From: an uncultured Candidatus Saccharibacteria bacterium
GTDB lineage: Bacteria > Patescibacteriota > Minisyncoccia > Phycocordibacterales > WO2-35-19
Assembly: GCA_964601125.1 (NCBI GenBank)
Contig: CAZRKB010000001.1
Span: forward strand, 6,371 to 49,671
Direction: 5' to 3'
DNA length: 43,301 bases
The position numbers and the translations under genes are program-made. Positions 5,913-32,043 of the stretch are shown here, one piece after another; the first letter of the stretch is position 1; each line of letters begins with the position of its first letter. Below the pieces are notes generated by a model. It searched no databases and was not told the DNA's origin. It worked only from the letters and a program-made list of their open reading frames with translations.

Positions 5913-6257
5913 TTATTTTTTAGAAGTTTCGGCTGTAGACTTGGCCGCCTTAGCAGCTGCTATTTCAGCCTCTTTTTTCTTAGCCTCAAGCTCCTTCTGC
6001 ATTTTACCTCCGTGTTTTATAAATTTCTTGGTTGGAGAAAATTCGCCAAGCCTGTGACCCACCATATCTTCAGAAGCTAAAACTTCGATATGATCTCTGC
6101 CATTATGAACACCAAAAGTGAAACCGACCATCTCCGGAGAAATGACACAAGCCCTAGACCACGTCTTAATAACCCCAGTCTCATGAGGTTTTTTGCCGAG
6201 CACTTTTTTAAGCACTCTTTCGTCTACGTATGGTCCTTTTTTGAGCGATCTTGACAT
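5913..6257 (-). CDS. rpsS: 30S ribosomal protein S19 with ~20-aa Lys/Ala-rich C-terminal extension
   Basis: [12 protein letters not shown] and FTFGVHNGR motifs; 114 aa, versus about 92 for the canonical protein (from memory). Confidence 0.95.
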
Positions 6258-6284
6258 AATAAAAGCCTATCCGGCTTCCTCGAG

Positions 6285-6313
6285 ATATTATATGAATTGC
6301 CTATTAAAGTCAA
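6285..6313 (-). promoter_or_regulatory. candidate promoter for the rpsS..rplE block (TTGACT-15-TATAAT or -17-TAATAT)
   Basis: Minus strand TTGACTTTAATAGGCAATTCATATAATAT, 28-35 nt upstream of the rpsS ATG. Confidence 0.45.
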
Positions 6314-6326
6314 ATGTTCTTTGAGC

Positions 6327-6743
6327 TTATTGCCAATTGCCCAAAATAAGGCCAAAAATAACAAAAAGGGCCAATTGATAACCAGCTTGTATTAGAAACC
6401 TTGCCCAAGAAATACGGGCTGAATCATTGTTCCACATAGCCGACCCGGCAATGGTCGGCATGATAAAGGCCGCCCACACCCAAAGAGCGTTCTCCACCCC
6501 ACTTGCATCAGCCCAACCTTTTATATAATAAGAGAGCACCCAAACTTGAAATAAAATCAAGACAAATTGAACCACATACAGCTTACCAGCACTTTTCTGC
6601 ATTTCTTTCCTCCTCTCCAAATCCATCTCTGTCGCACCTATCACCTCCATCCATTTTTTACCAAAAAGCGGTCCGTACCAAACATAGCCAAGCACCATAG
6701 CCAGCAGCCCACAAACCAAAATCGCCAAATAATTTATCTCCAT
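6327..6743 (-). CDS. DUF1761-like integral membrane protein
   Basis: 138 aa, 4 predicted TM helices; N-terminus YLAILVCGLLAMVLGYVWYGPLFGKKWM resembles DUF1761 as I recall it. Confidence 0.55.
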   Translation of the reverse strand: MEINYLAILVCGLLAMVLGYVWYGPLFGKKWMEVIGATEMDLERRKEMQKSAGKLYVVQFVLILFQVWVLSYYIKGWADASGVENALWVWAAFIMPTIAGSAMWNNDSARISWARFLIQAGYQLALFVIFGLILGNWQ

Positions 6744-6778
6744 TTTTTATTATTAAATTACTAATCCTCTTTTAAAGA

Positions 6779-7327
6779 TTACTTATAAAAATCGTCTTCT
6801 TCGTAATAATATGATTGCTCGACACCTTTCATATACACTTCCCTATCATCTATTTTGTCGGTTAAAGCGCCGCGTAAAAGTTCGCGGATCTCCAAATCAT
6901 TGACAGGGCTTCTTTGCATTGCATTCAAATAATCCATTTTGTCTATCTTCTGCCAATCGACGCATTTTTTGATATTTTTCTTCAACATTAAGTCGAGCCA
7001 AATGCGCATAGACCTGCCGTTGCCATCGCGAAATGGATGAGCCACATTCATTTCTACATACTTTTTGACAATTTCTTCAAAACTTCCTTCTGGCAACTTT
7101 TCAATCTCTTTCAAAATACTCTCTAAGTATAAATGTGAAGCGAAACGAAACCCGCCCTTGTTCATATCTATGGTGCGTATAGTCCCCGCAAATTCGTATA
7201 GGCCTTCAAAAAGATACCGATGAATCGCCTGCAAACCCTTTGTGGTGCCAACCTCAAAACCCTCAATCTCCGCACTTCCAAAAAGCTTCAGCGCCCTTTC
7301 TTTGCTTACTTCATCAATGTTTAACAT
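6779..7327 (-). CDS. fic: Fic-family protein (putative AMPylase), class III-like with C-terminal inhibitory motif
   Basis: Fic motif [12 protein letters not shown]; C-terminal SYYYEE resembles the [S/T]xxxE[G/N] inhibitory helix; 182 aa. Confidence 0.85.
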
Positions 7328-7333
7328 ATTTAA

Positions 7334-7342
7334 ATTATACCA
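7334..7342 (-). promoter_or_regulatory. fic extended -10 (TGGTATAAT), 6 nt from the ATG
   Basis: Read on the minus strand. Confidence 0.55.
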
Positions 7343-7422
7343 TAATTAACATGGTTTTTCTCCTTTCTAAACCCAAATTACCACCTGTAAATATTCTTTT
7401 CAAGAAAATACCGCAAATGAGT

Positions 7423-7458
7423 ATTGTAAACCTAATTGTAAACTAACCCGAGTTTACA
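7423..7458. promoter_or_regulatory. GTTTACA repeat cluster (two direct copies plus one inverted) upstream of fic
   Basis: ATTGTAAAC at 7423 and 7435 (12-nt period); inverted pair TGTAAACT (7437-7444) / AGTTTACA (7451-7458) spanning the stop of the upstream gene. Confidence 0.4.
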
Positions 7459-7972
7459 CCCTCCTACCATCATAGGCCCAATGGAGCAGAGCTTGGCGTT
7501 GGGTGGGGCGACAGGAGAGGTCGCCAGCGCGGCAATTTTTGGCAACTTGGGCCAAATGTCTCTTTATCGCCACCCATCTTTTGATTTGCCTTTCATCGTC
7601 CTCGCTCCTGCGGCCAAGGTAATAACGGCAATACCACTCAAACCATCCATGTGGGTCTTGTTTGTTTATCCACCCTTTTTTCTTCCAAACCGAAAGCGGC
7701 TGACTCGCACCGACTTTAAAAAAATTTAACTCGTCATGTTTTTCTCCATCTTTTGAAAGCTTTACTCCCTTAAACCAATCCCTAGGCAAATCTTTGGGAA
7801 TTAGACCTTTGACACCAATAAAATATGCTCCACCAAAAACACCGAACTTGAGCATTTGCTTTGGTGTGAGATCAGGTTTAAACCTTTTATCAAAATTTTT
7901 GCCAATTGGTTCAGTTAAAAAATATTTATAATTTTTCTGAAAATCATCGCTGTAAGTAACTTGTTTTTTCAT
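7454..7972 (-). CDS. conserved hypothetical protein (W/R-rich motif PHGWFEWYCRYYLGRR)
   Basis: ORF trimmed to MKKQVTY to avoid overlapping the upstream gene; no TM helix; family not recognised; 3' third visibly G+C richer. Confidence 0.5.
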   Translation of the reverse strand: MKKQVTYSDDFQKNYKYFLTEPIGKNFDKRFKPDLTPKQMLKFGVFGGAYFIGVKGLIPKDLPRDWFKGVKLSKDGEKHDELNFFKVGASQPLSVWKKKGWINKQDPHGWFEWYCRYYLGRRSEDDERQIKRWVAIKRHLAQVAKNCRAGDLSCRPTQRQALLHWAYDGRRV

Positions 7973-7980
7973 TTTAAATT

Positions 7981-8433
7981 TTATTTTCCAAGCAAATAAC
8001 AGACCAAAATTAAAAGCGCTGACCACCAACCCAAGAAAGAGACTATAAAACTAGCGACAATTTTTCTTTGCAAAGAAGATGGTAATAGCTCAGTTGCCCT
8101 ACCCTCTCTTTCTTGTTTTAACAAGAATGGGCTTACTACAAAACTTAAGAAGCAACCGTTGATAATTAAGACCAAAGCGATGATCAAATGCCAAAGAGGT
8201 GCACCCATCAAAGTTTCGTTGCGATAAAAAATAAAGCCCCCAATCAAAGCGAGGATGGTACCGACCCAAATAAGAGGTTTAGTGACTTTGTGAGTACGGA
8301 TAGTTGCCTCAGTCCAATACGCAGATTTGCGCCCCAAAAATCCATGAATATCGATCACCGTCACGGCTCCGAGACCAATCACAAACCCAGCCAAAAAAAG
8401 AAAGAGACCTAGTATGTCTACCAAATTAAACAT
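7981..8433 (-). CDS. hypothetical integral membrane protein (4 TM)
   Basis: 150-aa ORF with four long hydrophobic segments. Confidence 0.55.
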   Translation of the reverse strand: MFNLVDILGLFLFLAGFVIGLGAVTVIDIHGFLGRKSAYWTEATIRTHKVTKPLIWVGTILALIGGFIFYRNETLMGAPLWHLIIALVLIINGCFLSFVVSPFLLKQEREGRATELLPSSLQRKIVASFIVSFLGWWSALLILVCYLLGK

Positions 8434-8458
8434 TTTTAAATTATATCAAAACAATATT

Positions 8459-8929
8459 TCATTGAATTTCATCTTTGGGGAGCGGAGGTAGTTTGCTCAC
8501 ATCGATGCTTTTTGGTTCTTTTTCTTTTCTCGCCTTATCATTTTTGATTTTTTCCAATTCTTCTAGCAGATCGTCTATTTGTTTTTCGATTGTCTTATCT
8601 ACATCCCCGTTCTCTTCAGCCAGCTTCAAATCTTCCGGCGTAGGTTTAGGACGATAAAATCTGTCCGACTCATCCACGCTCATATTCAATAGTTCATTGC
8701 CCTTATCAACAAGCAAACTCAAGCGATTGGATATGTCAGTAAAATTTACTTTTTCTGTCTTCTTATTTTTTATATCTTCGATAATATCTTCCTGTAGCTT
8801 TGATGGTAATTTAGAAAACCCCATTAAAGAATTTTGCATAGCTTCTATTAGCATATTTTCCTCAATGTCTCTTTCCGGGGTTTGACCTAAAATTTGATCC
8901 TCTCCTAAATTTTTATCAATATTTTCCAT
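8459..8929 (-). CDS. hypothetical acidic protein
   Basis: 156 aa, rich in E/D/K, no TM helix or known motif; same strand as its neighbours. Confidence 0.45.
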   Translation of the reverse strand: MENIDKNLGEDQILGQTPERDIEENMLIEAMQNSLMGFSKLPSKLQEDIIEDIKNKKTEKVNFTDISNRLSLLVDKGNELLNMSVDESDRFYRPKPTPEDLKLAEENGDVDKTIEKQIDDLLEELEKIKNDKARKEKEPKSIDVSKLPPLPKDEIQ

Positions 8930-8962
8930 ATTTTAAATTATTTTGATAATTCTACTCTAATC

Positions 8963-10642
8963 TTACATCTTTTCTGGTACTTTGATACCCAAAAGATGGA
9001 GACCATTTTTGAGAATGTGATAGACCGACTCAGTGAGTGCCACCTTGTAAGAAGAAGTTGGGTCTTCTTCACTTATTATTTTGTTATTGCCATAAAAACT
9101 ATTGAAAGCTGAGGCGAGTTCGGTGAGATAGGTGACCAAATGATGAGGTGCGTACTCCCGCCCCGCTCGCTCGACAATTTCCGGAAAACGATAGAGCATT
9201 CTTTCGATTTCTGTTGTTCCCCAATTTTCCAAGGTTAGTCCTTGGAAGTTTTTTGTGTTATTAATTATCGCTTTTGAAAGCACCGATTTGGCTCGGACTG
9301 CTGTGTATTGTAAGTATGGCCCAGAGTCGCCTTCAAAAGAAATTGATTGGTCAAAATCAAAAATAATGTCCCCTCCGATCGCCTGCCTGAGTACCGAATA
9401 CTTTATCGCCCCTATAGCTACCGCTTCAGCTATTTTTAATTTTTCTTCTTCGTTATAATCCCGGTCCTTCAATTTTTCTGAAACTAGAGTTTGCACATCA
9501 TCAATCAATTGTTCCCCGGTTATAACATTGCCTTTACGCGAAGACATTTTGCCGGAAGGAAGTTTCAACATCCCATGAGAAAGGTGCTCGGTATTTTCTG
9601 CTACTTCCGGATTTATTTGTCCCAATGCTTTTAGCACAACTCTAAAATACCCATCCTGCTCGTTTGCAGTAATTATTATTGATTTGTCAGACTTATATTT
9701 ATCAAACTTGCGCAAAGCGTGAGCGATATCTTTAGCTTCATACAAAGGTAAGCCTTCATTATTCAAAAAAACTCTTGTGTGTAGTTTTTGGTCATACTTT
9801 TCTCCCCTGAAAATAACTGCGCCGTCGCTTTCTTCAAAAACCCCTTTTTGTAAAAATTCTTTTACTATTTTTTGAGCATCATCCGAAACTTCGCTTTCAA
9901 AAAAGTAAAAATCAAATTTGGTATTAAGTTTTTTATACAGCTCTTCAAAATGCGCGAGCGACACCTCTCTGCCCCATTCATAAATTTTCAAAAGTTCCTG
10001 ATCGCTCTTTTCATAAATTTTTTTGTTTATTTCCTTTATTTCTTCTTGGGCTGCTGGATCGTCCTCATACGCATTTGAGCCACTCGCATACGCCTTACCT
10101 ATATACTCAACCTTTTCTGCCAAATTTCCTTCCATTATTCCTCCCTCCTTTTTTATACCCCAAACAGCTTTGGCAATATGAAGTCCAACATCTCCTTGGT
10201 AAGTATTCCTTTTAACTTCTGCGCCACTCCATTCAAAAATGTTTGAGATCGATTGACCGATCACATTGCCCATCAAGTGCCCGATGTGAAGCGGTTTCAA
10301 TACATTTGTGTTTGTGTATTCTATTATTATCTTCTTGTTATCAAGCAAATCTGTTTTCCCAAAATTTTCTTTTTTCTTATTTATTTCGATAATCGAATCA
10401 GCGAAAAAATGTTTCGAGAGGAAAATATTTATGAATCTCTCATTCGCCAATTCTATCTTTTCGATTTCAGGCAATTTATTTTTCTCTAATTTTTCTATCA
10501 CCCCCTCTCCCCCTCTTATGCTAAGCGGGGGTAAAATCAAAGCAAAATCTCCCTTTTCAATTTCTTTTGGATGCACCAAAACCACACTCTCCATCTCAAG
10601 TGTCTCCTTTACCCACTGTTCAATTTTTTCTTTTATTGGCAT
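8963..10642 (-). CDS. argS: arginine--tRNA ligase
   Basis: 559 aa; class I HIGH motif PLHIGHLMGNVIG; C-terminal anticodon-binding region; contains family 1 repeat copy J in frame. Confidence 0.93.
   Translation of the reverse strand: MPIKEKIEQWVKETLEMESVVLVHPKEIEKGDFALILPPLSIRGGEGVIEKLEKNKLPEIEKIELANERFINIFLSKHFFADSIIEINKKKENFGKTDLLDNKKIIIEYTNTNVLKPLHIGHLMGNVIGQSISNIFEWSGAEVKRNTYQGDVGLHIAKAVWGIKKEGGIMEGNLAEKVEYIGKAYASGSNAYEDDPAAQEEIKEINKKIYEKSDQELLKIYEWGREVSLAHFEELYKKLNTKFDFYFFESEVSDDAQKIVKEFLQKGVFEESDGAVIFRGEKYDQKLHTRVFLNNEGLPLYEAKDIAHALRKFDKYKSDKSIIITANEQDGYFRVVLKALGQINPEVAENTEHLSHGMLKLPSGKMSSRKGNVITGEQLIDDVQTLVSEKLKDRDYNEEEKLKIAEAVAIGAIKYSVLRQAIGGDIIFDFDQSISFEGDSGPYLQYTAVRAKSVLSKAIINNTKNFQGLTLENWGTTEIERMLYRFPEIVERAGREYAPHHLVTYLTELASAFNSFYGNNKIISEEDPTSSYKVALTESVYHILKNGLHLLGIKVPEKM
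10498..10531 (-). repeat. family 1 element (hairpin + G-rich tail), copy J, inside argS
   Basis: Minus strand CCCCCGCTTAGCATAAGAGGGGG (9 bp plus 1 mismatch) followed by AGAGGGGGTGA; encodes PPLSIRGGEGV. Confidence 0.7.
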
Positions 10643-11164
10643 AGCTTTTTAAATAGCTTATACCCAGTCATCGCTCCGTTCAAGGCGTTGTGTGGTTCGG
10701 GCTCCGGCTCGATACCAAAAAGGTTGCAGGCTGATTTCAAACTCCAACTTTTTTCTTTTTTCAAACCCTTCTCCCAAGCAATTGAAAGTAGGTCGAGTCG
10801 ATCATGGTTTTCTTTGGTGCTCATTGGGTTATCGATCTCTGCTTTAAAAAACGCTTCATTTATAAAACCCCAATCAAAGCTTACATTGTAAGCGCAAAAA
10901 ACGTTTTCTCCTGCTCTATCTTTGTATTCCTTCATCGCTTACTGCATCTGCCCAATCTTTTTCGCTGTAACCGTTGTAATCAAGAGCTGCTTGCACCGCA
11001 TTTTCTATCCTTTCTGGTTTTACTTTTCTATTATAACTATCAATGATTTCAAAAGTTTGTGGATCAAAAAGCACCAAACCAATCTCAAGTATTTCATGCA
11101 CTCCAGGCACATCCCCACTTGTCTCCAAATCCGTCATAGCAATTTTTTTCTTGCTTTTGTCCAT
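10633..11164 (-). pseudogene. DEDDh (DnaQ-like) 3'-5' exonuclease split by a frameshift
   Basis: ORF 10916..11164 carries Exo I (MTDLETSG); ORF 10633..10935 carries Exo II (AYNVSFDWGF) and Exo III-like HNALNGA; they overlap by 20 nt in different frames. Confidence 0.7.
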
Positions 11165-11165
11165 T

Positions 11166-11756
11166 TTATTTAGCCCCCTTTTTGCTATTTATCCATTTGC
11201 CCGTAAGTAGCCGATGCCAATCATTTGGATCTCTCTTTTGTATTTCATCCCACATTTTCTTTGCGGTTTTTGTATAAAGTTTCTTAGATCTAACCACCGG
11301 TCTATGATCCTTTTGCATACTGATAGCTGCAGAGTCACCAATCTTGGCCAGCTCTTTTAGTTCTAAATCAACATCCAAATTGTCAGCGTCTTTAACAATT
11401 TTTGCCTCAAGAGATTCGCGTTTATTGTATTCTTCAAGCAATATTTTTGCCTCTTTTTCTAAAACAGTATTTTCAAAAATATGTTTTTCAGCCAATTCTT
11501 CATGTCTTGTCACATAATCTCTGTGCATAAAAGCAATATCCCCCGTTCTAGCTTCAGCTACATCATGCAACAAACACATTTTAATAACCTTAGAGACATC
11601 CGCTTTTTCGGCAATTGCAATAACCCAAGCAACCATAGTCATTCGAAAAATATGTTCAGAAATATTTGCCGCTTTACCCGTGAGTAGCTGCTGCCACGCT
11701 CTATCAACCTTTCGTAGACTACCAACCTCATACAAAAAATCTATGTCTCTTTTCAT
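11166..11756 (-). CDS. HD-domain phosphohydrolase (YfbR-like 5'-deoxynucleotidase)
   Basis: 196 aa; HD motif LLHDVAEARTGDI; 4-nt overlap with the glyA stop. Confidence 0.75.
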   Translation of the reverse strand: MKRDIDFLYEVGSLRKVDRAWQQLLTGKAANISEHIFRMTMVAWVIAIAEKADVSKVIKMCLLHDVAEARTGDIAFMHRDYVTRHEELAEKHIFENTVLEKEAKILLEEYNKRESLEAKIVKDADNLDVDLELKELAKIGDSAAISMQKDHRPVVRSKKLYTKTAKKMWDEIQKRDPNDWHRLLTGKWINSKKGAK

Positions 11757-12973
11757 TTTCGTAAAATTTTATCAATTTTTCTAGCAATGTTTACAAAATC
11801 TTTTTCTTTTTTGCCCCGAGTGGTTTCTGCTGCGCTCCCGAGCCTTATGCCAGAAGGATCCATCGGACTCCTGGTTTCGTTTGGAATTGTGTTTTTGTTT
11901 ACGATGATTCCATTTTTCTCTAATCTATCACTCGCGTCCTTACCCGAAATTCCTTTTCCTTCCATCCAAGTATCAACTAAAATTAAGTGGCTGTCTGTCC
12001 CACCAGAAACTACGCGCCAACCAAGTTTTTTTAACTCATCCGACAGAGCCTTGGCGTTCTTTATAACCTGCTTCGCATATTTTTGGAATGCAGGAGTTTT
12101 AGCTTCTTTGAGAGCCACTGCCACAGCGGCTATCTGGTTTAAGTGTGGCCCACCCTGTAACCCCGGGAAAACAGCTTTGTCTATAAGTTCTGAAATACTT
12201 TTATCTTCCCCTTTTGCATTTTTAATAGTTACATCATTACGTGAAAATATAATGGCGGAGCGAGGACCGCGAAGAGTTTTATGCACTGTAGTAGTTACCA
12301 CATGAGCACAAGGAAAAGGAGATGGATAAGCCTTGCCCGCAACAAGCCCCGCAAAATGAGACATGTCTACCATGAGTATCGCCCCGCAACTGTCGGCTAT
12401 CTCTCTAAATTTTTTGAAATCAACAATACGAGGGTAGGCAGTGAATCCGGCCACGATTATGTTTGGCTTTTCCCTTAAAGCGATTTCCTTTATTTTCTCA
12501 TAATCAATCTGTTCTGTATCTTTGTTCACCCCATAAGGCACCTGCTGCCAAAATTTACCGGTAGCTGAAACTTTGTGCCCATGAGTGAGGTGCCCACCAT
12601 GGTCAAGAGACATGCCCATAATCTTGCCTTGTCCTGAGCTTGTCGAAGGGCCACCCTTTGGTACAAGGCCCAGATAAACAGCCAAGTTGGCAGGACTACC
12701 TGAGAGAGGTTGTACATTAACACTCCACTTTGAAGTGAGGTTGAAAAGTTTAATAGCTCTTTCTTTACAAAGATTTTCAATTTTGTCTACAAAGGTTTGC
12801 CCTCCATAATATCTTTTGCCAGGATACCCTTCAGCATATTTATTTGTAAGTTCGCTCCCAAGCGCCTCGAGCACATCTTTAGAAACATAGTTTTCAGAAG
12901 CAATCAGGTTTATAACGCTTTTCTGTCTCTTCTTCTCTGCATCTATTAGCTTTTTTATTTGTTGGTCTTTCAT
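11753..12973 (-). CDS. glyA: serine hydroxymethyltransferase
   Basis: 406 aa; SLDHGGHLTHG and PLP-lysine region TTTVHKTLRGPR. Confidence 0.95.
   Translation of the reverse strand: MKDQQIKKLIDAEKKRQKSVINLIASENYVSKDVLEALGSELTNKYAEGYPGKRYYGGQTFVDKIENLCKERAIKLFNLTSKWSVNVQPLSGSPANLAVYLGLVPKGGPSTSSGQGKIMGMSLDHGGHLTHGHKVSATGKFWQQVPYGVNKDTEQIDYEKIKEIALREKPNIIVAGFTAYPRIVDFKKFREIADSCGAILMVDMSHFAGLVAGKAYPSPFPCAHVVTTTVHKTLRGPRSAIIFSRNDVTIKNAKGEDKSISELIDKAVFPGLQGGPHLNQIAAVAVALKEAKTPAFQKYAKQVIKNAKALSDELKKLGWRVVSGGTDSHLILVDTWMEGKGISGKDASDRLEKNGIIVNKNTIPNETRSPMDPSGIRLGSAAETTRGKKEKDFVNIARKIDKILRK
12626..12652 (-). repeat. 27-nt G+C-rich in-frame segment in glyA (family 4 candidate)
   Basis: Minus strand GGCCCTTCGACAAGCTCAGGACAAGGC encodes GPSTSSGQG within the otherwise conserved L-x-P-G-D-x-(I/V)-(M/L)-G-M region; resembles the nested segment of copy H. 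Confidence 0.45.
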
Positions 12974-13038
12974 GGGAAATACAAAATTTGATTTATTTAA
13001 TAAAAGTATTCTTCTGTCAATTACCTTAGACCATAGTG

Positions 13039-13067
13039 TTGAAAATGGTTGGTTACTCAGATATCAT
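13039..13067 (+). promoter_or_regulatory. thyA promoter TTGAAA-17-TATCAT, 6 nt from the ATG (leaderless design)
   Basis: Read directly; the ATG at 13074 follows the -10 by ACACTC. Confidence 0.6.
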
Positions 13068-13073
13068 ACACTC

Positions 13074-13985: not shown

Positions 13986-13986
13986 A

Positions 13987-14023: not shown

Positions 14024-14036
14024 AAAGAAAAAAGAC

Positions 14037-15210: not shown

Positions 15211-15217
15211 AACTGAT

Positions 15218-23253: not shown

Positions 23254-23254
23254 T

Positions 23255-23656: not shown

Positions 23657-23665
23657 TTTATTATC

Positions 23666-23941: not shown

Positions 23942-24023
23942 AGTGAATGATCGTTAATACTGATAGTTGCTTAAATTTTATAATACAACCAAAAACCGCG
24001 CACTCTTATCTTGGGGATATAAT

Positions 24024-24425: not shown

Positions 24426-24438
24426 GATTATATTTTAC

Positions 24439-25509: not shown

Positions 25510-25513
25510 AAAT

Positions 25514-27838
25514 TTATAGTCGCTTTGCTTTTAATCGGAGTGAATTGGCTACCACCGAAACGCTTGACATTGCCATAGCAAAACCGGCAAAAATCGGCGA
25601 GAGCAGCCAGCCAAAAAGAGGGTAAAACAAGCCGCCCGCCAGTGGGATACCGACAATATTATAGACAAAAGCCCAAAAAAGATTCTGTTTGATGCCGGCC
25701 ATGGTAACCCTGGAAAGTCTGATTGCCTTAATGAGCTTCGATATGTCTCCATGGAGCAAAGTGATACCAGCCGACTCGATAGCCACATCTGTACCAGTCG
25801 CCATGGCGATACCAATATCTGCTTCGGCGAGCGCTGGTGCATCATTAACACCGTCTCCAACCATAGCCACCACTTTACCCTTTGATTGGATATCCCTTAT
25901 CTTTGTAAGTTTTTCATCAGGCAACACTTCCGCCACCACTTCATCAATACCGACTTCGCTAGCGATATGGGCCGCAGCATTTTTGTCATCGCCTGTAAGC
26001 ATTACCGTTTTGATCTTCATCCGATGAAGATTTTTGATCGCCTCTACTGCTTCAGGTTTTATTTTGTCACCAACCGCAATGAGTCCCAAAACTCTGTCTT
26101 TGGTCGCCACAAAGATCGGAGTCTTACCATTTCTGGTTTCTTGCTCTACCTTTACCGAATCGAAACTGAGCCCCAAATCAATCATCAACTTACTGTTGCC
26201 GGCATAATAATCCTCTCCCCCGATCTTCCCGGTCACCCCCTTGCCTTTGATGGATTCAAAGCTTTCTGTTTGTTTAGATTCAAAATTATTATTCTTAGCA
26301 TAAGAGACGATAGCATGAGCAATCGGGTGTTCAGATTTTTGCTCAAGAGACACCAAAATCTGGAGGAGCACTTCATCGCTTAAGCTAGAATAATTTTGAA
26401 TTGAAGTCACTTCTGGTTTACCGAGAGTGATTGTCCCGGTTTTATCCATCACCAAAGTATCTACTTTGTGTAATTTTTCGAGAGTAGCGGCATCTTTTAC
26501 CAATATACCCTCCCTTGCTCCTTTGCCGACACCTACAATGACCGCTGTCGGAGTAGCAAGACCCAGAGCACAAGGACAAGCAATAACAAGAATGCCAACA
26601 AAAGAAACTAGCCCCATTGAAAACGCTTCTTTAAAGCCCAAATAGCTACTACCGATGGTAAGCCACAATCCAAGAGAGATGACGGCGAGCACCAGTACCA
26701 CCGGCACAAAAATGGCTGATATTTTGTCCGCCAGAGCTTGGATCGGCGCCTTGCTTCCTTGGGCCTCTTCAACCATTTTAATTATTCTGGAGAGCATTGT
26801 TTCCGAGCCCACTTTAGTCGCCCGAAAAACAAAAGAGCCAGTAGTATTGATAGTACCACCAGTCACCAGATCACCGATTTTTTTCTCAACCGGCATCGGT
26901 TCACCACTCACCATCGACTCATCGACATACGAAACACCTTCTACCACCACCCCATCTACCGGCAATGAACCTCCGGGACGCACCACAATCAAGTCACCAT
27001 GGACAACCATTTGGACTGACACCTCTTCCTCCTTACCATTTCGTCTTACTAAAGCGGTTTTGGCTTGAAGATTTAGAAGTTTTTCAATGGCGTCGCCGGT
27101 TTTGAGTTTAGATTTTGCTTCAAGATATTTACCGAGAGTAATGAAGGCAATAACCACAATAGTCACTTCATAATAATTTTGCTTAGTGTTAATAAGGGAC
27201 GAAAGACTCATCTCAAAAGCTGAGGCGATAAAACTATACAAAAAGGCAACTAGTGTACCGATACCAATCAACGTATCCATATTGGCCTTGCCGTAACGCA
27301 AAAAACGATAAACACCCATCAGATATGGTCGGCCAGCCACAAAAAGAGCATAGGTAGCAAAAACCGGCATCAAATGATGGAAAAAATCCATCCAAATTTG
27401 TGGTATTTCTGATGAAAATCCCAACTTAACACCAAATTCCCAAACCATTAACAAAATGCTAATGAAAGAAATCGGAATAAGTGTCATCACCTTACTTTTG
27501 AGATCCGATATTTCAGAAAGTTTGTCTTTTTTTGATTGGTTGATACCCAAATGAGCCGCATGTTCTTCTTCGGACATACCCATTTCCCTGGCACCGCGCA
27601 CAAATTCAACACCAGAAGCATCTTGGTTTTGAATAAAAGTATAACCCAAAGGTTCAATCTTTGAAGAAAGTTTGGCAATGCTTGTTTTTGAGTTATCAAA
27701 ACCAAGTTTGGCGGCTTCAGTGCCATAATTCACTTCGGCAAAATTGACCCCCTCTTCTTTTTTCAATGTTTTCTCAATAATCGCAGCGCAAGAAGCGCAG
27801 TGCATCCCTTTTATTCTGTAAGTTTTTGTATTTTGCAT
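25514..27838 (-). CDS. copA: copper-translocating P1B-type ATPase
   Basis: 774 aa; [11 protein letters not shown] domain, CPC motif ([11 protein letters not shown]), [17 protein letters not shown]. Confidence 0.95.
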
Positions 27839-27842
27839 ATTA

Positions 27843-28109
27843 TTAACTTATCTTCTTAAGTCTATAAACATTTAGGATTTCTTTGGTTGCCTTACTGGCC
27901 TCCCCTTTTTTGATTTGAGGCACCAAGCAAGAGCTGAGATGATTTTCCATTATTGCATCTTCAATACTAGACAGAGCGCGCTTCACTGCAGAAGTCTGGG
28001 TAATGATGTCGATACAATAAACCCCCTTTTCAACCATTTCTTGTAAACCTCTAACTTGCCCCTCAATAATTTTGAGCCGGCGATTGATCCTTGATTTTGG
28101 TGTTGTCAT
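27843..28109 (-). CDS. csoR: CsoR-family copper-sensing repressor
   Basis: [12 protein letters not shown] motif and the Cys...His-x3-Cys ligand pattern (YCIDI, HLSSC); start set to the ATG at 28109 (28118 also possible). Confidence 0.85.
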
Positions 28110-28116
28110 AGCAACC

Positions 28117-28145
28117 ATCTTATACCCCCTGGGGGTATTTGTAAA
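28117..28145 (-). promoter_or_regulatory. putative cop operon promoter (TTTACA-17-TAAGAT)
   Basis: -35 at 28145..28140 and -10 at 28122..28117; the ATG at 28109 is 7 nt downstream. Confidence 0.5.
28122..28138. promoter_or_regulatory. putative CsoR operator, perfect palindrome ATACCCCC-T-GGGGGTAT
   Basis: 17-nt perfect inverted repeat just upstream of csoR, lying in the spacer of a TTTACA-17-TAAGAT promoter; GC-core palindromes of this type are known CsoR sites. Confidence 0.7.
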
Positions 28146-28289
28146 GTGAGTCTGTGGATAGGATAAATTTTGTATAAAATAGAAGGAGTGAGCGGGGCAA
28201 AATGTTCTTGGAGAAAACCCTAAGCAACTAAACAAAGATGGAGTTTAAAGGCTCCGAGTGTTTTCGGAAAAAACATTATTCTGTTGCGT

Positions 28290-28730
28290 TCACCGATGCA
28301 TCGGACGCAGATGCGCGGCGACACCAATAGCCGTGGCGATAATGACTAAATTTTTGATTATGTATTGACCTTCAAGAGTGGGGACCAGAGTTTGGTTCCA
28401 GGTTTCTCCTGGCAAGAAAAACAGCGGGCCGGCGGTAGTCACCATGTGTAAAAGAAGCATGGGTATCACCCCCCTTTCTGCCCCGGGTATTAAAAACAGT
28501 ATTCCTATCAAGCATTCAAACAAACCGAAAATAATAAAAAAAGTCTGGAACTCCATTATCGGCATAGTCTCATTGAAAAGATTTTGTACCACCTGACTTG
28601 CCGGCGACATACCTATCATCTTCAAAATCCCAAACCAAAAGAAAACTACAAAAAGGGCCAGCCGCGAAACCGGCATCGAGATGCGTTTAAAAAAATTTAT
28701 GATTTTAATATCAATAGTTCGGAGTGACAT
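28290..28730 (-). CDS. hypothetical integral membrane protein (DoxX/DUF417-like?)
   Basis: 4 TM helices; start set to MSLRT because TATAAT lies 6 nt upstream; family call tentative. Confidence 0.5.
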   Translation of the reverse strand: MSLRTIDIKIINFFKRISMPVSRLALFVVFFWFGILKMIGMSPASQVVQNLFNETMPIMEFQTFFIIFGLFECLIGILFLIPGAERGVIPMLLLHMVTTAGPLFFLPGETWNQTLVPTLEGQYIIKNLVIIATAIGVAAHLRPMHR

Positions 28731-28736
28731 GCGAAA

Positions 28737-28742
28737 ATTATA
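28737..28742 (-). promoter_or_regulatory. -10 box TATAAT, 6 nt from the ATG at 28730
   Basis: Read on the minus strand. Confidence 0.45.
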
Positions 28743-28793
28743 ATATAAAAAATCAGCTCGGCACACCCATTACTTGGGTATACAAATTAAAAA

Positions 28794-29303
28794 CTACTTT
28801 AATTTTTCTAAAACACTCGATTCGTCCAGATCTTGACGGTTAAATTTTGTACCTTGAAATTTCATTTTTTCAATCAAAAACTCGGGGCTGTGCCATTCAA
28901 GCACGCTTTCACACTCAACATCGTTTTTACTTCTCTTCCCCAAATCCTGACTTTTTAATTTGCAGAGAAAATAAAGAGTGGTTTTTTCAATTTCAACTTC
29001 ACTTCCCTTGTGTTTAAAACGACTTTGGATGGAACCCAGATAATCAACAATTTCCGCTTCAGCTCCAAACTCTTCCAAAAGTCCCCGATGTACCGTTTGC
29101 TCCAAAGTCTCCCCCATTTCAACGGTCTCCCGCATCAAAATATAAAAATCATCCAATCCTTGGTCTTTCCAATACCCAGCAAACTCTGATCCATTTTTCG
29201 AATCAAAATGATGCGCACAAACTTCATCATTTCCATTCACCAAAACCGCCCCCACTGACACATGTCTCGGGTGTTCATTGTTGCCCTGAAAATAGTTTTT
29301 CAT
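28794..29303 (-). CDS. NUDIX hydrolase
   Basis: Nudix box GETLEQTVHRGLLEEFG; 169 aa. Confidence 0.82.
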   Translation of the reverse strand: MKNYFQGNNEHPRHVSVGAVLVNGNDEVCAHHFDSKNGSEFAGYWKDQGLDDFYILMRETVEMGETLEQTVHRGLLEEFGAEAEIVDYLGSIQSRFKHKGSEVEIEKTTLYFLCKLKSQDLGKRSKNDVECESVLEWHSPEFLIEKMKFQGTKFNRQDLDESSVLEKLK

Positions 29304-29309
29304 AGAGGG

Positions 29310-29318
29310 ATTATAGCA
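29310..29318 (-). promoter_or_regulatory. NUDIX gene extended -10 (TGCTATAAT), 6 nt from the ATG
   Basis: Read on the minus strand. Confidence 0.55.
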
Positions 29319-29361
29319 AATTTAGAGTTAGAAAAGCTCGGCTATATGATTTTAGGAAATA

Positions 29362-29370
29362 TGCTATAAT
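29362..29370 (+). promoter_or_regulatory. hicB extended -10 (TGCTATAAT), 9 nt from the ATG
   Basis: Read directly. Confidence 0.5.
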
Positions 29371-29379
29371 ATAGGTGTA

Positions 29380-29616
29380 ATGAAAAATATAATTCAATTT
29401 CTAATAACCGAGGAAGACGGAGTTTATACCGCAGAAGCTATGAATGCGGGCATAGTTACTGATGGCAAAACTTTCGAGGAGCTTAAGAAAAATATCGTAG
29501 AAGCGGTAGAACTCTATTTCGAAGGAGAAGATTTGGCTTCTCTCGGGTTTAGCCGCACCCCTTCTATCCTTACCAACTTTGAACTCTCTCTGAATTCAAA
29601 TGGGGTCAAAGCTTAA
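29380..29616 (+). CDS. hicB: HicB-like antitoxin (UPF0150 fold, no DNA-binding domain)
   Basis: 78 aa; overlaps the downstream hicA-like ORF by 17 nt. Confidence 0.7.
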   Translation: MKNIIQFLITEEDGVYTAEAMNAGIVTDGKTFEELKKNIVEAVELYFEGEDLASLGFSRTPSILTNFELSLNSNGVKA

Positions 29617-29842
29617 AGTCCTGTCCAGCAAAGATGTTTTGAAAATTTTATCTGGTTTTGGTTTTTCTATACATAGTCAAAGAGGAAGTCACATAAAACT
29701 TAAAAGATTTATGCCAATAGGCGAAGAAACCCTTTTGGTTCCTGAGCGCAATCCGATCCCAAGAGGCACATTAAAAGCAATTTTCAACCAAGCCTCTGAA
29801 TACATCTCTAAATCCGAGTTGCAGAAACATTTTTATAATTAA
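29600..29842 (+). CDS. hicA: HicA-like mRNA interferase toxin
   Basis: 80 aa; SSKDVLKILSGFGFSIHSQRGSHIKLKR resembles the HicA/YcfA dsRBD-like motif. Confidence 0.72.
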   Translation: MGSKLKVLSSKDVLKILSGFGFSIHSQRGSHIKLKRFMPIGEETLLVPERNPIPRGTLKAIFNQASEYISKSELQKHFYN

Positions 29843-29848
29843 TTCGTG

Positions 29849-29920
29849 GGTGACTATCCGGATTCGAACCGGAGATAAAGGCTCCACAAACCTCTGTGTT
29901 ACCACTACACCATAGTCACC
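29849..29920 (-). tRNA. tRNA-His (GTG) with genome-encoded G-1
   Basis: Hand-folded cloverleaf: acceptor GTGACTA/TAGTCAC, extra 5' G opposite discriminator C, anticodon loop TTGTGGA, T arm TCCGG-TTCGAAT-CCGGA; no encoded CCA. Confidence 0.88.
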
Positions 29921-29961
29921 AATAATCAAAATAATTGCACAAAAATGGAGATTTTTCCAGA

Positions 29962-30606
29962 CTACCGATAATCAGGCGCTTCTTCTTTGATACCAGAGAG
30001 ATAGTTGGAATACCGAGCAAGAGCATAGAGAGCACTCGAGAGACGATTGAGGAAAGCTCTTGTGTGCGAGCTTATATGCTTTGGTTTATTTTCTAATTTT
30101 GACTGAGAAGGAAAATCTTTTTCAAAAAGAGTGCGGTTCATCTCTTCTTCTGCTACTTGAGTTACTCGTCTTTCGGCTCTGCGGGCAATAGTCCGAGCTA
30201 TGTCAAATATTGCACCTAGGCCAGCCCCTCCCATCTGATCCTTACCCAAATCTTCCGGTCCACCAGAAATAAAGAAGGATTTTATCGGCGGCATCTTTTT
30301 TTCGATACCATTTATAATTTCCTCAAGCTCTTTTACTTTTGCCTCTGGGATGGTTTTGTCCGCCCCAGCGAGCTCAGCCTGGATTATAAAAAGATTTTTC
30401 TGAATATTGTGCACTATTTGCGACAAATCTCTGCCTTCAAACTTAAAGCTCAAATAAGCTGACTGGACCTTGCAAAGACCCAGGAACGAATTTATCTCAT
30501 CAAGACTACCGAGAGCTTCAGCAATAGCCGAACTTTTTGAAATCCTCTGATTTGAGTCCAGAGTTTTAGTGGTCCCATCATCTCCTTTTCCTGTAAATAA
30601 TGCCAT
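29962..30606 (-). CDS. PduO-type ATP:cob(I)alamin adenosyltransferase-like protein
   Basis: MALFTGKGDDGTT N-terminus and ARTIARRAERR motif; ORF trimmed to avoid tRNA-Leu. Confidence 0.78.
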   Translation of the reverse strand: MALFTGKGDDGTTKTLDSNQRISKSSAIAEALGSLDEINSFLGLCKVQSAYLSFKFEGRDLSQIVHNIQKNLFIIQAELAGADKTIPEAKVKELEEIINGIEKKMPPIKSFFISGGPEDLGKDQMGGAGLGAIFDIARTIARRAERRVTQVAEEEMNRTLFEKDFPSQSKLENKPKHISSHTRAFLNRLSSALYALARYSNYLSGIKEEAPDYR

Positions 30607-30612
30607 GTCTTT

Positions 30613-30697
30613 TGGTGCGCAGAGGGAGACTTGAACTCCCACGCCTTACGGCACACGCACCTCAAGCGTGCTTGTCTACCAATTCCAACACCTGCGC
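30613..30697 (-). tRNA. tRNA-Leu (GAG), long variable arm, CCA encoded
   Basis: Hand fold: acceptor GCGCAGG/TCTGCGC, anticodon stem CACGC/GCGTG with loop TTGAGGT, variable arm TGCCGTAAGGCGT, T arm GGGAG-TTCAAGT-CTCCC, 3' ACCA. Confidence 0.88.
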
Positions 30698-30722
30698 TTA
30701 TGGCGCGCATTATAGTGTAGAT

Positions 30723-31196
30723 TTACTCTTTTTTCAATTCAGCCTTTTGTTCTGTGTTTTCGAGAGAAGTTTCTTCTTCCCCCCTCTCCTCTTGCAAGGA
30801 GAGGGGTTGGGGGTGAGGTAGTTCCTCTGGCACCTCTCTTACATTTCTCATCGCTCTCTTGATTTCTTTGGCTGCCTTTTTCCTTATGTGGTATAGCTTA
30901 GCCCTGCGAACTTTTGAGCGCTTTACTACTTCTATTTTTTCTATGCTTGGAGAATATATAGGGAAAATCCTCTCCACCCCCACACCAGAAGTAACCTTTC
31001 TTAATGTAAATGTTCCACCTGCTTCCCTGCCATGCTTTACAGCCAAACAAAGACCCTCGAAGGCCTGCAATCTGGTTTTTGGTTTGCCGGTCTTTTTATC
31101 CTTTTCGATAATTTTTTGGGTAACCTTAACAGTATCCCCGGATCTTATATCCAAATTTTTCCTTTCTTCTATTTTTACTGGTGAAATGATTTTCAT
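30723..31196 (-). CDS. rplS: 50S ribosomal protein L19 with ~40-aa C-terminal extension
   Basis: RLQAFEGLCLAV, GVGVERIFPIYSP and RRAKLYHIRKK match L19; ATG 1 nt after the rplB stop; the tail contains repeat copy C. Confidence 0.9.
   Translation of the reverse strand: MKIISPVKIEERKNLDIRSGDTVKVTQKIIEKDKKTGKPKTRLQAFEGLCLAVKHGREAGGTFTLRKVTSGVGVERIFPIYSPSIEKIEVVKRSKVRRAKLYHIRKKAAKEIKRAMRNVREVPEELPHPQPLSLQEERGEEETSLENTEQKAELKKE
30779..30818 (+). repeat. family 1 element, copy C, inside the rplS 3' extension
   Basis: CCCCTCTCC-TCTTGCAA-GGAGAGGGG-TTGGGGGTGAGG; encodes LPHPQPLSLQEERGE on the gene strand. Confidence 0.88.
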
Positions 31197-31197
31197 A

Positions 31198-32043
31198 TTA
31201 TTTCTTAGCAACTCTCCTTCTGCTTACAATATATTTATCAGAATACTTCTTTGATCGACGTGTTTTCTGACCTTTACCTGTTGGTCTACCCCAAAGAGAA
31301 ACCGCCCTCTTTCTGCCTCTACCTTGACGGCCTTCGCCTCCACCATGTGGATGATCAACTGGGTTCATAGCTGTACCCCTAACAGTAGGGCGTATACCCT
31401 TCCATCGCGATCTACCGGCCTTTCCATAATTTTCAAGTCTTTTTTCTTCATTTGACACCTCACCTATGCTTGCAAAACAGCCCTCTCGCACTTTTCTTAC
31501 TTCAGTTGACGGCATCTTCAAGTCAACATAGCCAGCATCCTTTGCGACAACTTGCACGAAGTTGCCAGCAGACCTGGCGATCTTGGCACCCTGATAAGGC
31601 TTGAGTTCTACATTGTAAACAAATGTCCCTACAGGTATCAATTTCAAAGGAAGCCTGTTTCCTTGCTTTATTTCAGCGTTTTCTCCAGTCACAAACTCTT
31701 CTCCAGGCTTTACACCCTTTGGTAATAAAACGTATTTCTTCTCACCATCTCTATAGACAGCGAGACCAATAAAGCCAGTACGGTTTGGATCATATTCAAC
31801 CGAAACTATTTTGTATGGTATACCGATTTTTTTGTAATTAAAATCAACTTCCCTCCAAAGACGTTTGTGTCCGCCCCCTTTGTGTCGCACACTGATCCTG
31901 CCCGATCCGCTTCTACCTACAGCCCTCTTCCTTCCGTGCAAGAGAGACTTTAGAGGCTGATTTCCGGTAAGCACACCCTTATAAAGCACCACGCTCGTGT
32001 GCCTCCTTGATTTGGTTGTTGGTTTGTAAGTTTTGATTGCCAT
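31198..32043 (-). CDS. rplB: 50S ribosomal protein L2
   Basis: 281 aa; GTAMNPVDHPHGGGEGR motif. Confidence 0.97.
   Translation of the reverse strand: MAIKTYKPTTKSRRHTSVVLYKGVLTGNQPLKSLLHGRKRAVGRSGSGRISVRHKGGGHKRLWREVDFNYKKIGIPYKIVSVEYDPNRTGFIGLAVYRDGEKKYVLLPKGVKPGEEFVTGENAEIKQGNRLPLKLIPVGTFVYNVELKPYQGAKIARSAGNFVQVVAKDAGYVDLKMPSTEVRKVREGCFASIGEVSNEEKRLENYGKAGRSRWKGIRPTVRGTAMNPVDHPHGGGEGRQGRGRKRAVSLWGRPTGKGQKTRRSKKYSDKYIVSRRRVAKK

Follow-up and report, generated by a model that had tools for sequence, protein, structure and literature searches.

Gene organization of the locus

The 43,301-nucleotide stretch of DNA analysed here (hereafter the window) belongs to the genome of a Zambryskibacteria-like bacterium in the Paceibacteria (Patescibacteria/CPR). 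On its minus strand it carries the S10-spc ribosomal protein cluster in two halves, with 24,940 nt and about 40 genes lying between the stop codon of rplB and the start codon of rpsS. A split of about 25 kb at this point had been proposed by the sequence-only reading of the locus; the measurement bears it out, and all the genes named in that reading were recovered in their places with NCBIfam, Pfam and ARAGORN. The features are as follows.

34221..35423, minus strand: tuf (NCBIfam EF-Tu, 671 bits), which opens the upstream block
31198..34149, minus strand: rpsJ-rplC-rplD-rplW-rplB, first half of the S10 operon (NCBIfam)
33790..34149, minus strand: rpsJ (NCBIfam S10, above curated cut-off)
33053..33712, minus strand: rplC (NCBIfam L3, above curated cut-off)
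32376..33047, minus strand: rplD (NCBIfam L4, above curated cut-off)
32076..32366, minus strand: rplW (NCBIfam L23, 1.9e-17, 63.6 bits, under its 81-bit cut-off)
31198..32043, minus strand: rplB (NCBIfam L2, above curated cut-off)
31194..31200, minus strand: rplB stop codon TAA, 1 nt and the rplS ATG (from the sequence), with no space for a promoter or terminator
30723..31196, minus strand: rplS (L19, 157 aa; NCBIfam rplS_bact, 105 bits, above cut-off)
30709..30737, minus strand: promoter-like TTGAAA-17-TATAAT (11/12 matches), in the 3' end of rplS, 11 nt before tRNA-Leu
30613..30697, minus strand: tRNA-Leu(GAG) (ARAGORN)
29962..30606, minus strand: PduO-type cob(I)yrinic acid a,c-diamide adenosyltransferase gene (NCBIfam TIGR00636), between the two tRNAs
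29848..29919, minus strand: tRNA-His(GTG) (ARAGORN, Rfam tRNA)
6327..29842, no single strand: intervening block of housekeeping and accessory genes (Pfam)
6285..6313, minus strand: σ70-like promoter motif TTGACT-17-TAATAT, alternatively TTGACT-15-TATAAT (scan, 9/12 matches)
6261..6279, minus strand: leader hairpin GGAAGCC-GGATA-GGCUUUU with U-run (fold)
2552..6257, minus strand: rpsS-rplV-rpsC-rplP-rpmC-rpsQ-rplN-rplX-rplE, second half of the S10 operon and start of spc (NCBIfam equivalogs)
5913..6257, minus strand: rpsS (NCBIfam)
2552..3088, minus strand: rplE (NCBIfam)
1885..2550, plus strand: comF-family gene (NCBIfam ComF), convergent on rplE

Gene order is intact inside both halves, rpsJ-rplC-rplD-rplW-rplB in one and rpsS-rplV-rpsC-rplP-rpmC-rpsQ(-rplN-rplX-rplE) in the other, and nowhere in the window do the eleven S10-operon genes run contiguously with rpsS following rplB. 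Upstream of tuf lie a DUF5663 gene and a 1039-aa ORF, not fusA, and the same neighbours occur in relatives. The cluster is broken a second time after rplE, a point absent from the earlier reading; since no rpsN, rpsH or rplF follows rplE, the comF-family gene marks this second break. The L5-ComF-PilM order of the window is also found in the relative L110, and the L5|S14 junction is likewise loosened across the class. No Shine-Dalgarno motifs were found ahead of the cluster genes of the window.

According to Pfam, the interval between the halves encodes HicA, a NUDIX protein, CsoR-CopA-DsbD/HMA-cupredoxin, a histidine kinase with its response regulator, VTT, FolD, SIMPL, SecE-NusG-L11, dCMP deaminase, ThyA, SHMT, an HD protein, ArgS and Fic, together with a cytidylyltransferase-family protein, possibly an NMN adenylyltransferase. 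The content listed from the letters alone was correct as far as it went, but it left out a DUF1761 gene (6327-6743) between fic and rpsS, and of the hicBA pair it named only HicA has a Pfam match, the putative hicB partner having none.

The rplB-rplS junction

Read directly, the junction is AAG AAA TAA t ATG AAA, with the rplB stop codon at 31200-31198 and the rplS ATG at 31196. The description of rplS as spliced onto rplB thus holds, the spacing being 1 nt here and 0-6 nt in five of the 11 distinct junction-carrying genomes (the window, L005, L010, L011 and L168). Judged from this spacing of a single nucleotide between the two reading frames, co-transcription of rplS with rplB and translational coupling of the two are almost certain. 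The C-terminal extension of the rplS product contains a repeat-derived segment, a REP-like repeat at 30798-30815. The usual home of rplS is the trmD operon (rpsP-rimM-trmD-rplS in E. coli). The window encodes the same orthologue by its above cut-off NCBIfam rplS_bact match, but in this clade the gene stands after rplB, with tRNA-Leu and tRNA-His behind it; trmD, rimM and rpsP were all missing among the scanned ORFs of the window, and this rplS does not sit in a trmD operon. Of 11 distinct related genomes that were scanned (13 loci, including two duplicate pairs), 10 have the rplS-tRNA-Leu-tRNA-His module. L004 shows no tRNA because its contig stops first, and in L009 tRNA-Leu lies on the opposite strand. 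The adenosyltransferase gene occupies the same position in L008 and L011, and in one relative rplS is instead placed after a diversity-generating retroelement.

The split in close relatives and across the class

The order rplB then rplS was observed in ten related genomes whose rplB is 77-81% identical to that of the window. In the eight closest species representatives (L004-L011) rplB is followed by rplS, with no rpsS in the downstream sequence at hand (the full 10 kb in six, 0.7 kb in L004 and 2 kb in L009), and two further genomes have the same junction. Genomes carrying it form one clade on the rplB tree, a single-protein neighbour-joining tree, and all of the relatives are metagenome-assembled genomes. 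Both halves were found on the relative contig CAZHPR010000001.1, where the end of rplB (22485) and the start of rpsS (4831) are 17.65 kb apart on the same strand, with FolD-SIMPL-SecE-NusG-L11, thymidylate genes and SHMT in between. L110 has the order of the window, SecE-NusG-L11...SHMT...ArgS...S19-...-L5-ComF-PilM, and the interval gene order is common to L008, L010, L011/L169, L110 and L170.

The high conservation that the sequence-only reading had ascribed to the rplB-rpsS adjacency holds in the controls: 31 of 31 non-Patescibacteria outgroup genomes (31 Firmicutes and Spirochaete loci) have the canonical order without interruption, with a gap of 22-388 bp. Among informative Paceibacteria species representatives the junction is opened in 31 of 46. 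Across 49 Patescibacteria representatives, the rplB-rpsS distance is up to 200 bp in 15 and 0.2-8 kb in 17, rplS takes the place of rpsS in eight, and rpsS is missing for at least 2.5 kb in six. The inserted genes vary by lineage, with rplJ-rplL in one subclade, DAG kinase, TruD or helicase elsewhere, and 86 singleton ORFs. This genome is not alone in having the split, which is the most extreme form of a loosening of rplB|rpsS that extends across the class Paceibacteria and for which we found no published description.

A promoter-like motif and hairpin upstream of rpsS

The sequence-only reading had noted an apparent promoter of rpsS's own at 6285-6313. Taken alone, the match there is at chance level, since the region holds four such sites against 2.7 expected; the comparative evidence is in its favour, as a promoter-like motif precedes rpsS in 80 of 109 Paceibacteria loci against 17.1±3.4 in shuffles. 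Promoter and hairpin together (stem of at least 5 bp starting at most 14 nt from the -10 hexamer) precede it in 66 of the 109, against 7.8±2.6 in shuffles, and a T-rich tail, which was left unscored, follows the hairpin in most of these 66, among those listed. Of 19 loci with an rplB-rpsS gap of 41-200 bp, 18 have the motif, compared with only one of the six whose gap is at most 40 bp. The hairpin starts at a median of 7 nt past the -10 hexamer, which is an atypical placement for a terminator.

In the window the hairpin begins 5 nt past the scan-called -10, or 7 nt if the fully Watson-Crick core AAGCC/GGCUU is considered, and so falls at about the predicted transcription start. Its GC-rich stem with a direct U-run (GGAAGCC-GGATA-GGCTTTT-ATT) has the form of an intrinsic (Rho-independent) terminator; its folding taken alone is not significant (z = -1.0), and it is the best match of model R1 within the window. 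Across loci the stems vary while pairing is kept: 90% of cells are paired, a figure inflated by the picking of the aligned sequences for having a hairpin, and 18 double-sided changes were counted against 4.4 in shuffles. Stems in close relatives read AAGCC/GGCTT, AAGCTC/GAGCTT or TCCCGC/GCGGGA. A covariance model of the element gave 67 matches at E ≤ 1 in 136 sources (the window and 135 Patescibacteria loci, about 1.56 Mb), with about 55 just upstream of rpsS, mostly overlapping its training set, four before rpsN, three before tuf and one before rplC; in 483 kb of controls it gave no rpsS-upstream match. An Rfam gathering-score scan of the window returned only a tRNA and no known leader RNA, and for the surroundings of rpsS in the window and L161, Rfam 15 gave no relevant match at E ≤ 1. 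It may be noted that promoter-then-hairpin arrangements also occur ahead of secE and nusA in the window.

Origin of the split

Whether the split is a genuine rearrangement or an assembly chimera had been left undecided by the sequence-only reading. The window derives from a metagenome, conserved ribosomal-protein genes of co-occurring strains can give misjoins, and tRNA genes adjoin one junction, all of which would suit a misassembly or binning chimera that joined the cluster halves to unrelated DNA. However, a different assembler repeats both junctions base for base, in Logan contigs with 100% (SRR16481187) and 99.95% (SRR16481186) identity; contig L001 contains the rplB-rplS junction at 100% identity, the rpsS block is identical in contigs L002 and L003, and the rpsS junction is seen in a second run as well. 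These contigs possibly come from the window's own reads, and are thus independent in assembler and not necessarily in data. Beyond them, at least 10 relatives recovered by unrelated projects share the junctions and the interval order, one relative contig holds both halves, and GC skew and composition are uniform over 1-39 kb. With the junctions present in L001-L003 and conserved in L004-L011, L164, L168, L110 and L169-L171, we rejected a chimera, to which we assign next to no probability; the shared synteny likewise speaks against a contig-joining artefact, and the arrangement is genuine. A recent insertion of a mobile island into an otherwise intact S10 operon, for instance at tRNA-Leu/tRNA-His, is also highly unlikely. 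tRNA genes, which are classic integration sites, do lie at the rplS end, the interval has accessory-looking genes (hicA, fic, the cop operon and the two-component system), and only some relatives have the csoR-copA cluster. But Pfam scans of the interval ORFs detected no integrase or transposase family, no direct repeats turned up flanking the two junctions, and there is no compositional step, GC being 0.36-0.45 throughout. Moreover, the interval is built around essential housekeeping genes (secE-nusG-rplK, folD, glyA, argS), and this core is syntenic in relatives with rplB only 77-81% identical. Some small accessory stretches, for example the cop cluster, may have entered the interval later, and the interval itself may have grown step by step through insertions or through a single larger translocation or inversion.

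Another explanation accepts the split as real and denies the rpsS block a dedicated promoter, so that it would be read through from upstream, with the hairpin and U-run serving as the terminator of the preceding gene. The element is indeed shaped like an intrinsic terminator, the sequence from DUF1761 to the promoter-like site contains no predicted terminator, and the like arrangements before secE and nusA suggest that such hairpins are possibly generic. We nevertheless consider read-through unlikely: the -35/-10 motif shows strong enrichment and keeps a fixed place with respect to the hairpin, always upstream of it at that median gap of 7 nt, and the arrangement holds for any upstream gene (rplB, argS, DUF1761, MscS-like and others). 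A terminator that served the upstream gene alone ought to stand ahead of the next promoter. The functions of promoter and of terminator can also coexist.

Taken together, the observations quite probably reflect a genuine, vertically inherited reorganization of the S10-spc cluster in a Zambryskibacteria-like clade of Paceibacteria, with a separately promoted rpsS block. A cut at rplB|rpsS would have divided the cluster; the upstream part, tuf-rpsJ-rplCDWB, would have captured rplS-tRNA-Leu-tRNA-His at its 3' end, and the downstream part, rpsS...rplE, would have a σ70-type promoter of its own, with a predicted transcript that opens with a short GC-rich hairpin and a U-run, both as suggested by comparative conservation. 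The presence of the element before rpsS even at gaps of 41-200 bp supports independent transcription of the rpsS block, which, if true, would make rplB|rpsS tolerant of insertions. As the element occurs across Paceibacteria, including loci with closely spaced rplB and rpsS, and stands ahead of rpsN and tuf as well, modules probably came first and insertions later: the cluster would have turned into separately promoted modules, the separate promoters would have removed the need for contiguity, the junctions would then have gathered different genes in each lineage, and in this clade the separation would have grown to 17-25 kb, filled with ordinary housekeeping genes (secE-nusG-rplK, folD, thymidylate genes, argS).

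Comparison with known systems

In E. coli and in the B. subtilis supercluster the S10 operon reads rpsJ-rplCDWB-rpsS-rplV-rpsC-rplP-rpmC-rpsQ. Compared with the S10-spc-alpha supercluster of these species, the window keeps gene content and order within each half but is cut at rplB|rpsS (24.9 kb) and after rplE, has rplS appended to rplB, has tuf-rpsJ without the str-operon partner fusA upstream, and lacks Shine-Dalgarno motifs and any detected known leader RNA. The S10 leader of E. coli is bound by L4 and forms a terminator-like, L4-controlled attenuator, and the Paceibacteria element is terminator-like in form as well. Like ribosomal-protein leaders in general (the S10 leader; PMC7247131, PMC3616713) it is conserved, structured and located in the 5' leader; unlike them it is a mere 5-9 bp hairpin with a U-run directly at the predicted transcript start, and it matches no Rfam family. 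The L4-responsive S10 leader is narrowly distributed, according to the part of Fu et al. 2013 (PMC3616713) consulted, and the table of Eckert & Weinberg 2020 (PMC7247131) has no rpsS-first leader, while its text makes no mention of CPR lineages.

Translation operons separated by multigene insertions are described for Gammaproteobacteria and Bacilli (Brandis et al. 2019, PMC6735719; Brandis 2021, PMC8046335), and in the sections of these papers that we consulted the insertions fall between recognised operons; a term search of the accessible text of PMC8046335 gave no mention of rplB, rpsS or rplS. So far as these sections go, the process appears to be the same, with insertions at the boundaries of independently promoted supercluster units, but the Paceibacteria boundary lies inside what is a single operon in other bacteria, has a lineage-specific promoter-hairpin element and recurs across the class.

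Arrangement of the ribosomal protein genes

In the window the S10-spc cluster is cut between rplB, encoding L2, and rpsS, encoding S19, and the L19-coding rplS now follows rplB. The gene map drawn in the sequence-only reading was confirmed by listing the ORFs, searching for tRNAs and scanning for protein families (window positions):

34221-35423, minus: tuf (family scan), followed by rpsJ, rplC, rplD and rplW
31198-32043, minus: rplB (family scan), with rplS next
start 31196, minus: rplS (AAG AAA TAA t ATG, read from the sequence)
30613-30697: tRNA-Leu(GAG) (tRNA search)
between tRNA-Leu(GAG) and tRNA-His(GTG): PduO-type adenosyltransferase gene (family scan)
29848-29919: tRNA-His(GTG) (tRNA search)
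rpsS start 6257, rplE end 2552: rpsS-rplV-rpsC-rplP-rpmC-rpsQ-rplN-rplX-rplE (family scan)

A single base lies between the rplB stop and the rplS start, and the same junction recurs in relatives; rplS has joined the rplB unit, as had been proposed. The separation of rplB from rpsS amounts to 24,940 nt. The approximately 23 kb after tRNA-His begin with hicA, NUDIX, csoR-copA-dsbD/HMA-cupredoxin, a histidine kinase with its response regulator and VTT, continue with folD, SIMPL, secE-nusG-rplK and a cytidylyltransferase-family gene (possibly NMN adenylyltransferase), and end with dCMP deaminase, thyA, glyA, an HD protein, argS, three unknowns, fic and DUF1761. The closest protein matches were from Patescibacteria/Paceibacterota, with 'Candidatus Zambryskibacteria' among the nearest.

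The cluster is broken a second time at 1885-3088, where a convergent comF-family gene and pilM replace rpsN-rpsH-rplF after rplE. At the other end, the place upstream of tuf is taken not by rpsL-rpsG-fusA but by a DUF5663 gene and an ORF of 1039 aa that matches no family (35592-39065, minus); DUF5663 holds this place all through the clade, and the large ORF was detected there in four relatives (L005, L006, L010, L011). The secE-nusG-rplK genes of the window are not followed by rplA-rplJ-rplL.

The split is genuine and inherited

The sequence-only reading had allowed for either a genuine rearrangement or an assembly chimera. By exact-protein look-up we found three Logan contigs, which are assembled per sequencing run and with an assembler different from that of the window. 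One (L001, SRR16481187) runs from S10 through the adenosyltransferase gene and crosses the rplB-rplS junction, while two others (L002, SRR16481187; L003, SRR16481186) cover argS or fic, DUF1761, rpsS and rplV; over their full length they were 100%, 100% and 99.95% identical to the window, respectively. As both junctions were reproduced in these independent assemblies and the same split was seen in the synteny of relatives, the chimera is ruled out and the rearrangement is real.

For this comparison the window L2 was scanned against one genome per GTDB species, and the resulting 80 loci were annotated by tblastn with the window proteins. The order tuf-S10-L3-L4-L23-L2-L19 was present in all eight closest species, which come from unrelated projects and have L2 77-81% identical to that of the window, and S19 was absent downstream in all eight (over the full 10 kb in six, and over the available 0.7 kb in L004 and 2 kb in L009). 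Several of the eight carry PduO, NUDIX, CsoR-CopA, FolD and SecE-NusG-L11 downstream. Two further genomes, found via L19 homologues, have the same L2-L19 junction. L2 and L19 are 0-6 nt apart in five genomes, counting the window, and the other six have spacings of 27-112 nt; L19-tRNA-Leu(GAG)-tRNA-His(GTG) is a module kept across relatives. In a neighbour-joining tree of L2, a single gene taken from relatives that are all metagenome-assembled genomes, the L2-L19 genomes form one clade.

A mobile island was also considered and rejected: Pfam scans of the ORFs in the rplB-rpsS interval gave no integrase or transposase families, the two junctions had no flanking repeats, and neither GC content nor GC skew showed a step at the rplB-rplS or the rpsS junction. 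On contig CAZHPR010000001.1 of one relative, L2 ends at 22485 (L011) and S19 starts at 4831 (L169). The two genes share a strand and are 17.65 kb apart, and the stretch separating them contains FolD, SIMPL, SecE-NusG-L11, thymidylate genes and SHMT. The metagenome contig L110 has the order SecE-NusG-L11...SHMT...ArgS...S19-...-L5-ComF-PilM. Because gene order is kept in relatives including these two, the rplB-rpsS interval is, judged by synteny, old housekeeping DNA and no recent island. Since L110 carries L5-ComF-PilM (12986-15308), it also shares the second break.

In one relative whose L19 is 84% identical (L166 and L167, 4573-6650), rplS-tRNA-Leu-tRNA-His directly follows a diversity-generating-retroelement-like pair, bAvd and a reverse transcriptase, which stands in place of rplB; VTT, SIMPL and an inverted L11-NusG-SecE lie near this module.

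Loosening of ribosomal protein junctions across the class

The split is part of a class-wide pattern. We scored what follows L2 in 49 Patescibacteria species representatives.

Outcome after L2 (number of species representatives, n=49)
S19 within 200 bp of L2: 15
S19 201-1000 bp from L2: 4
S19 1-8 kb from L2: 13
L19 in place of S19: 8
S19 absent for at least 2.5 kb: 6
Uninformative: 3

The same scan gave an L2-S19 gap of 22-388 bp in the controls, 31 Firmicutes and Spirochaete loci, and a metagenome scan with S19 as query agreed with this picture. The S10|L3 and L5|S14 junctions are loosened likewise, the L5-S14 gap in Paceibacteria ranging from 14 bp up to at least 4.6 kb, or S14 being absent, as against 7-32 bp in controls. 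On the L2 tree, tight junctions occupy basal lineages and expanded gaps are nested and scattered.

The gap genes vary by lineage. In another Paceibacteria subclade (L023, 11644-12526; L024, L027, L037, L100, L104, L121) the rplB-rpsS gap contains rplJ (L10) and rplL (L7/L12) along with genes for an HTH protein and an MscS-like membrane protein; of these seven loci, only L023, L024 and L100 gave an L12 match. Other lineages have DAG kinase, TruD, a helicase or cell-surface proteins. The gap ORFs of 42 loci fell into a few small lineage-specific clusters and 86 singletons, with no window homologues among them and no tRNAs in these gaps. One common inserted gene was therefore rejected, and a single ancestral insertion is unsupported. 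In locus L025 secE-nusG lies 1.9 kb past rplB, one subclade has rplJ-rplL in the gap, and the clade of the window has secE-nusG-rplK; that the gaps are remnants of one ancestral secE-nusG-rplKAJL insertion is a suggestive speculation.

Strong hairpins occur in the rpsJ-rplC spacer (33671-33789, minus; AAACAAAACCGCCCC-ATAAA-GGGGCAGTTTTGTTT) and the rplX-rplE spacer (3089-3156, minus; CCCGCCCGAATCGTACCGATTCGGTACGGGCGGG), junctions at which relatives have insertions of 0.5-3.6 kb.

A promoter-like motif and hairpin upstream of rpsS

An own promoter for rpsS had been proposed at 6285-6313, where the window reads TTGACT-17-TAATAT (6313-6285). The hairpin GGAAGCC-GGATA-GGCUUUU begins 5 nt past the -10 hexamer and is accompanied by an AU-rich leader without Shine-Dalgarno. 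Taken alone, the window match is within chance (9/12 matches, fold z = -1.0), but among 109 distinct Paceibacteria rpsS upstream regions the motif, scored at 9/12 or better, was present in 80 (dinucleotide shuffles, 17.1±3.4), and motif plus a stem (5 bp or longer, beginning at most 14 nt past the -10 hexamer) in 66 (7.8±2.6). The putative element is thus significant comparatively, and the rpsS block is headed by a conserved promoter-like motif with a hairpin. The stem starts at a median of 7 nt past the -10 hexamer, about the expected transcription start. The commonest stem is AGCTC/GAGCT (in RNA AGCUC/GAGCU, with a U-run after); others, with pairing kept, are CCCGC/GCGGG, AGCGT/ACGCT and AAGCC/GGCTT, and stem sequence varies even among near relatives of the window. 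The element was present in 18 of 19 loci with an L2-S19 gap of 41-200 bp, as compared with one of six with a gap of 40 bp or less.

We then ran two covariance-model searches over 136 sources, the window and 135 fetched Patescibacteria loci (about 1.56 Mb). The model, whose hairpin alignment was drawn from sequences chosen for having hairpins, gave 67 matches at E <= 1, about 55 of them directly upstream of rpsS, including loci outside the training set, four before rpsN, three before tuf and one before rplC. Against 483 kb of controls it had no match upstream of rpsS, and no Rfam family matched the rpsS leader. Specificity of the hairpin to rpsS was rejected, given the similar elements before rpsN, tuf and rplC of relatives and generic ones at secE and nusA of the window. 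At secE (18622-18710, minus) a perfect TTGACA-16-TATAAT is followed by a terminator-like leader hairpin, AAAAAACCCCG-TTC-CGGGGTTTTTT; at nusA (39150-39277, plus) TGTATAAT precedes GTCCGCC-TTCC-GGCGGAC-TTTGTGTTTT. Both have the layout seen at rpsS, a promoter and then a hairpin with a U-run.

From these arrangements we infer that rpsS...rplE is an independent transcription unit. The adjoining rplB and rplS are probably co-transcribed and translationally coupled, and uncoupling would have preceded, and allowed, insertion at the rplB|rpsS junction. Possible roles of the hairpin are to stabilise the 5' end, to terminate read-through from upstream or to act as an attenuator. We regard it as unlikely, though worth stating, that the element shared by rpsS, rpsN, tuf and rplC is a lineage-specific cis-regulatory leader coordinating free-standing ribosomal protein modules. 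Its AGCUC/GAGCU stem and U-run, placed exactly at the predicted 5' end, would then attenuate, or bind a ribosomal protein or Nus factor, and would stand in for the operon-level coupling and L4/S8-type autoregulation used by other bacteria, so that the most conserved prokaryotic gene adjacency could dissolve in Paceibacteria.

Implications and published work

The S10-spc cluster is a textbook case of constant gene order in bacteria and archaea, and the practice of pulling 'syntenic ribosomal protein' markers from metagenomic scaffolds for CPR phylogenies presupposes its contiguity. If our reading is true, a whole class has divided the cluster into modules with promoters of their own, breaking it repeatedly at S10|L3, L2|S19 and L5|S14, which would be a natural experiment on what binds it elsewhere, namely co-transcription and autoregulation. 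The element would be a candidate for stoichiometric expression without contiguity in organisms apparently lacking Shine-Dalgarno-led initiation. Pipelines that require a single short scaffold to carry both L2 and S19, or call rplB|rpsS splits misassemblies, would mishandle Paceibacteria genomes. In searchable full-text literature, which leaves out most subscription journals, we found no description of the rplB|rpsS split, the rplS capture or a CPR rpsS leader, and term searches of PMC9132574, PMC8046335 and PMC7247131 returned none either. The closest published concept in that literature comes from Gammaproteobacteria and Bacilli, whose concatenated translation operons are separated by insertions between operons (PMC6735719, PMC8046335).

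Other features of the window

A REP-like palindromic repeat, CACCCCNAACCCCTCTCC with partner GGAGAGGGG, has three copies against 0.03 expected:

13990-14007, plus: REP-like copy
30798-30815, minus: REP-like copy
41828-41845, minus: REP-like copy

The copy in the rplS coding region encodes part of a C-terminal extension (...ELPHPQPLSLQEERGEE...).

A Shine-Dalgarno-like tetramer (GGAG, GAGG or AGGA) was present between -20 and -4 in only 2 of 49 window genes, and the ribosomal protein gene leaders are AU-rich without Shine-Dalgarno, as opposed to the clear GGAGG of Firmicutes controls; translation in this organism appears to start largely without such pairing.

An RNase T/DnaQ-like exonuclease gene (10633-11164, minus) lies in two overlapping ORFs, 10916-11164 and 10633-10935, which may reflect a frameshift, decay to a pseudogene or an error in sequencing. 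The 100% identical contig L002 reaches only 10884 and therefore covers just part of the downstream ORF.

No dnaA was found in the window. The GC skew changes sign at about 39065-39278, and so does the direction of the genes, which lie on the minus strand to the left of this site and on the plus strand to its right; the cumulative skew is lowest here. This site may be the replication origin, in which case both ribosomal protein blocks would lie within about 37 kb of it.
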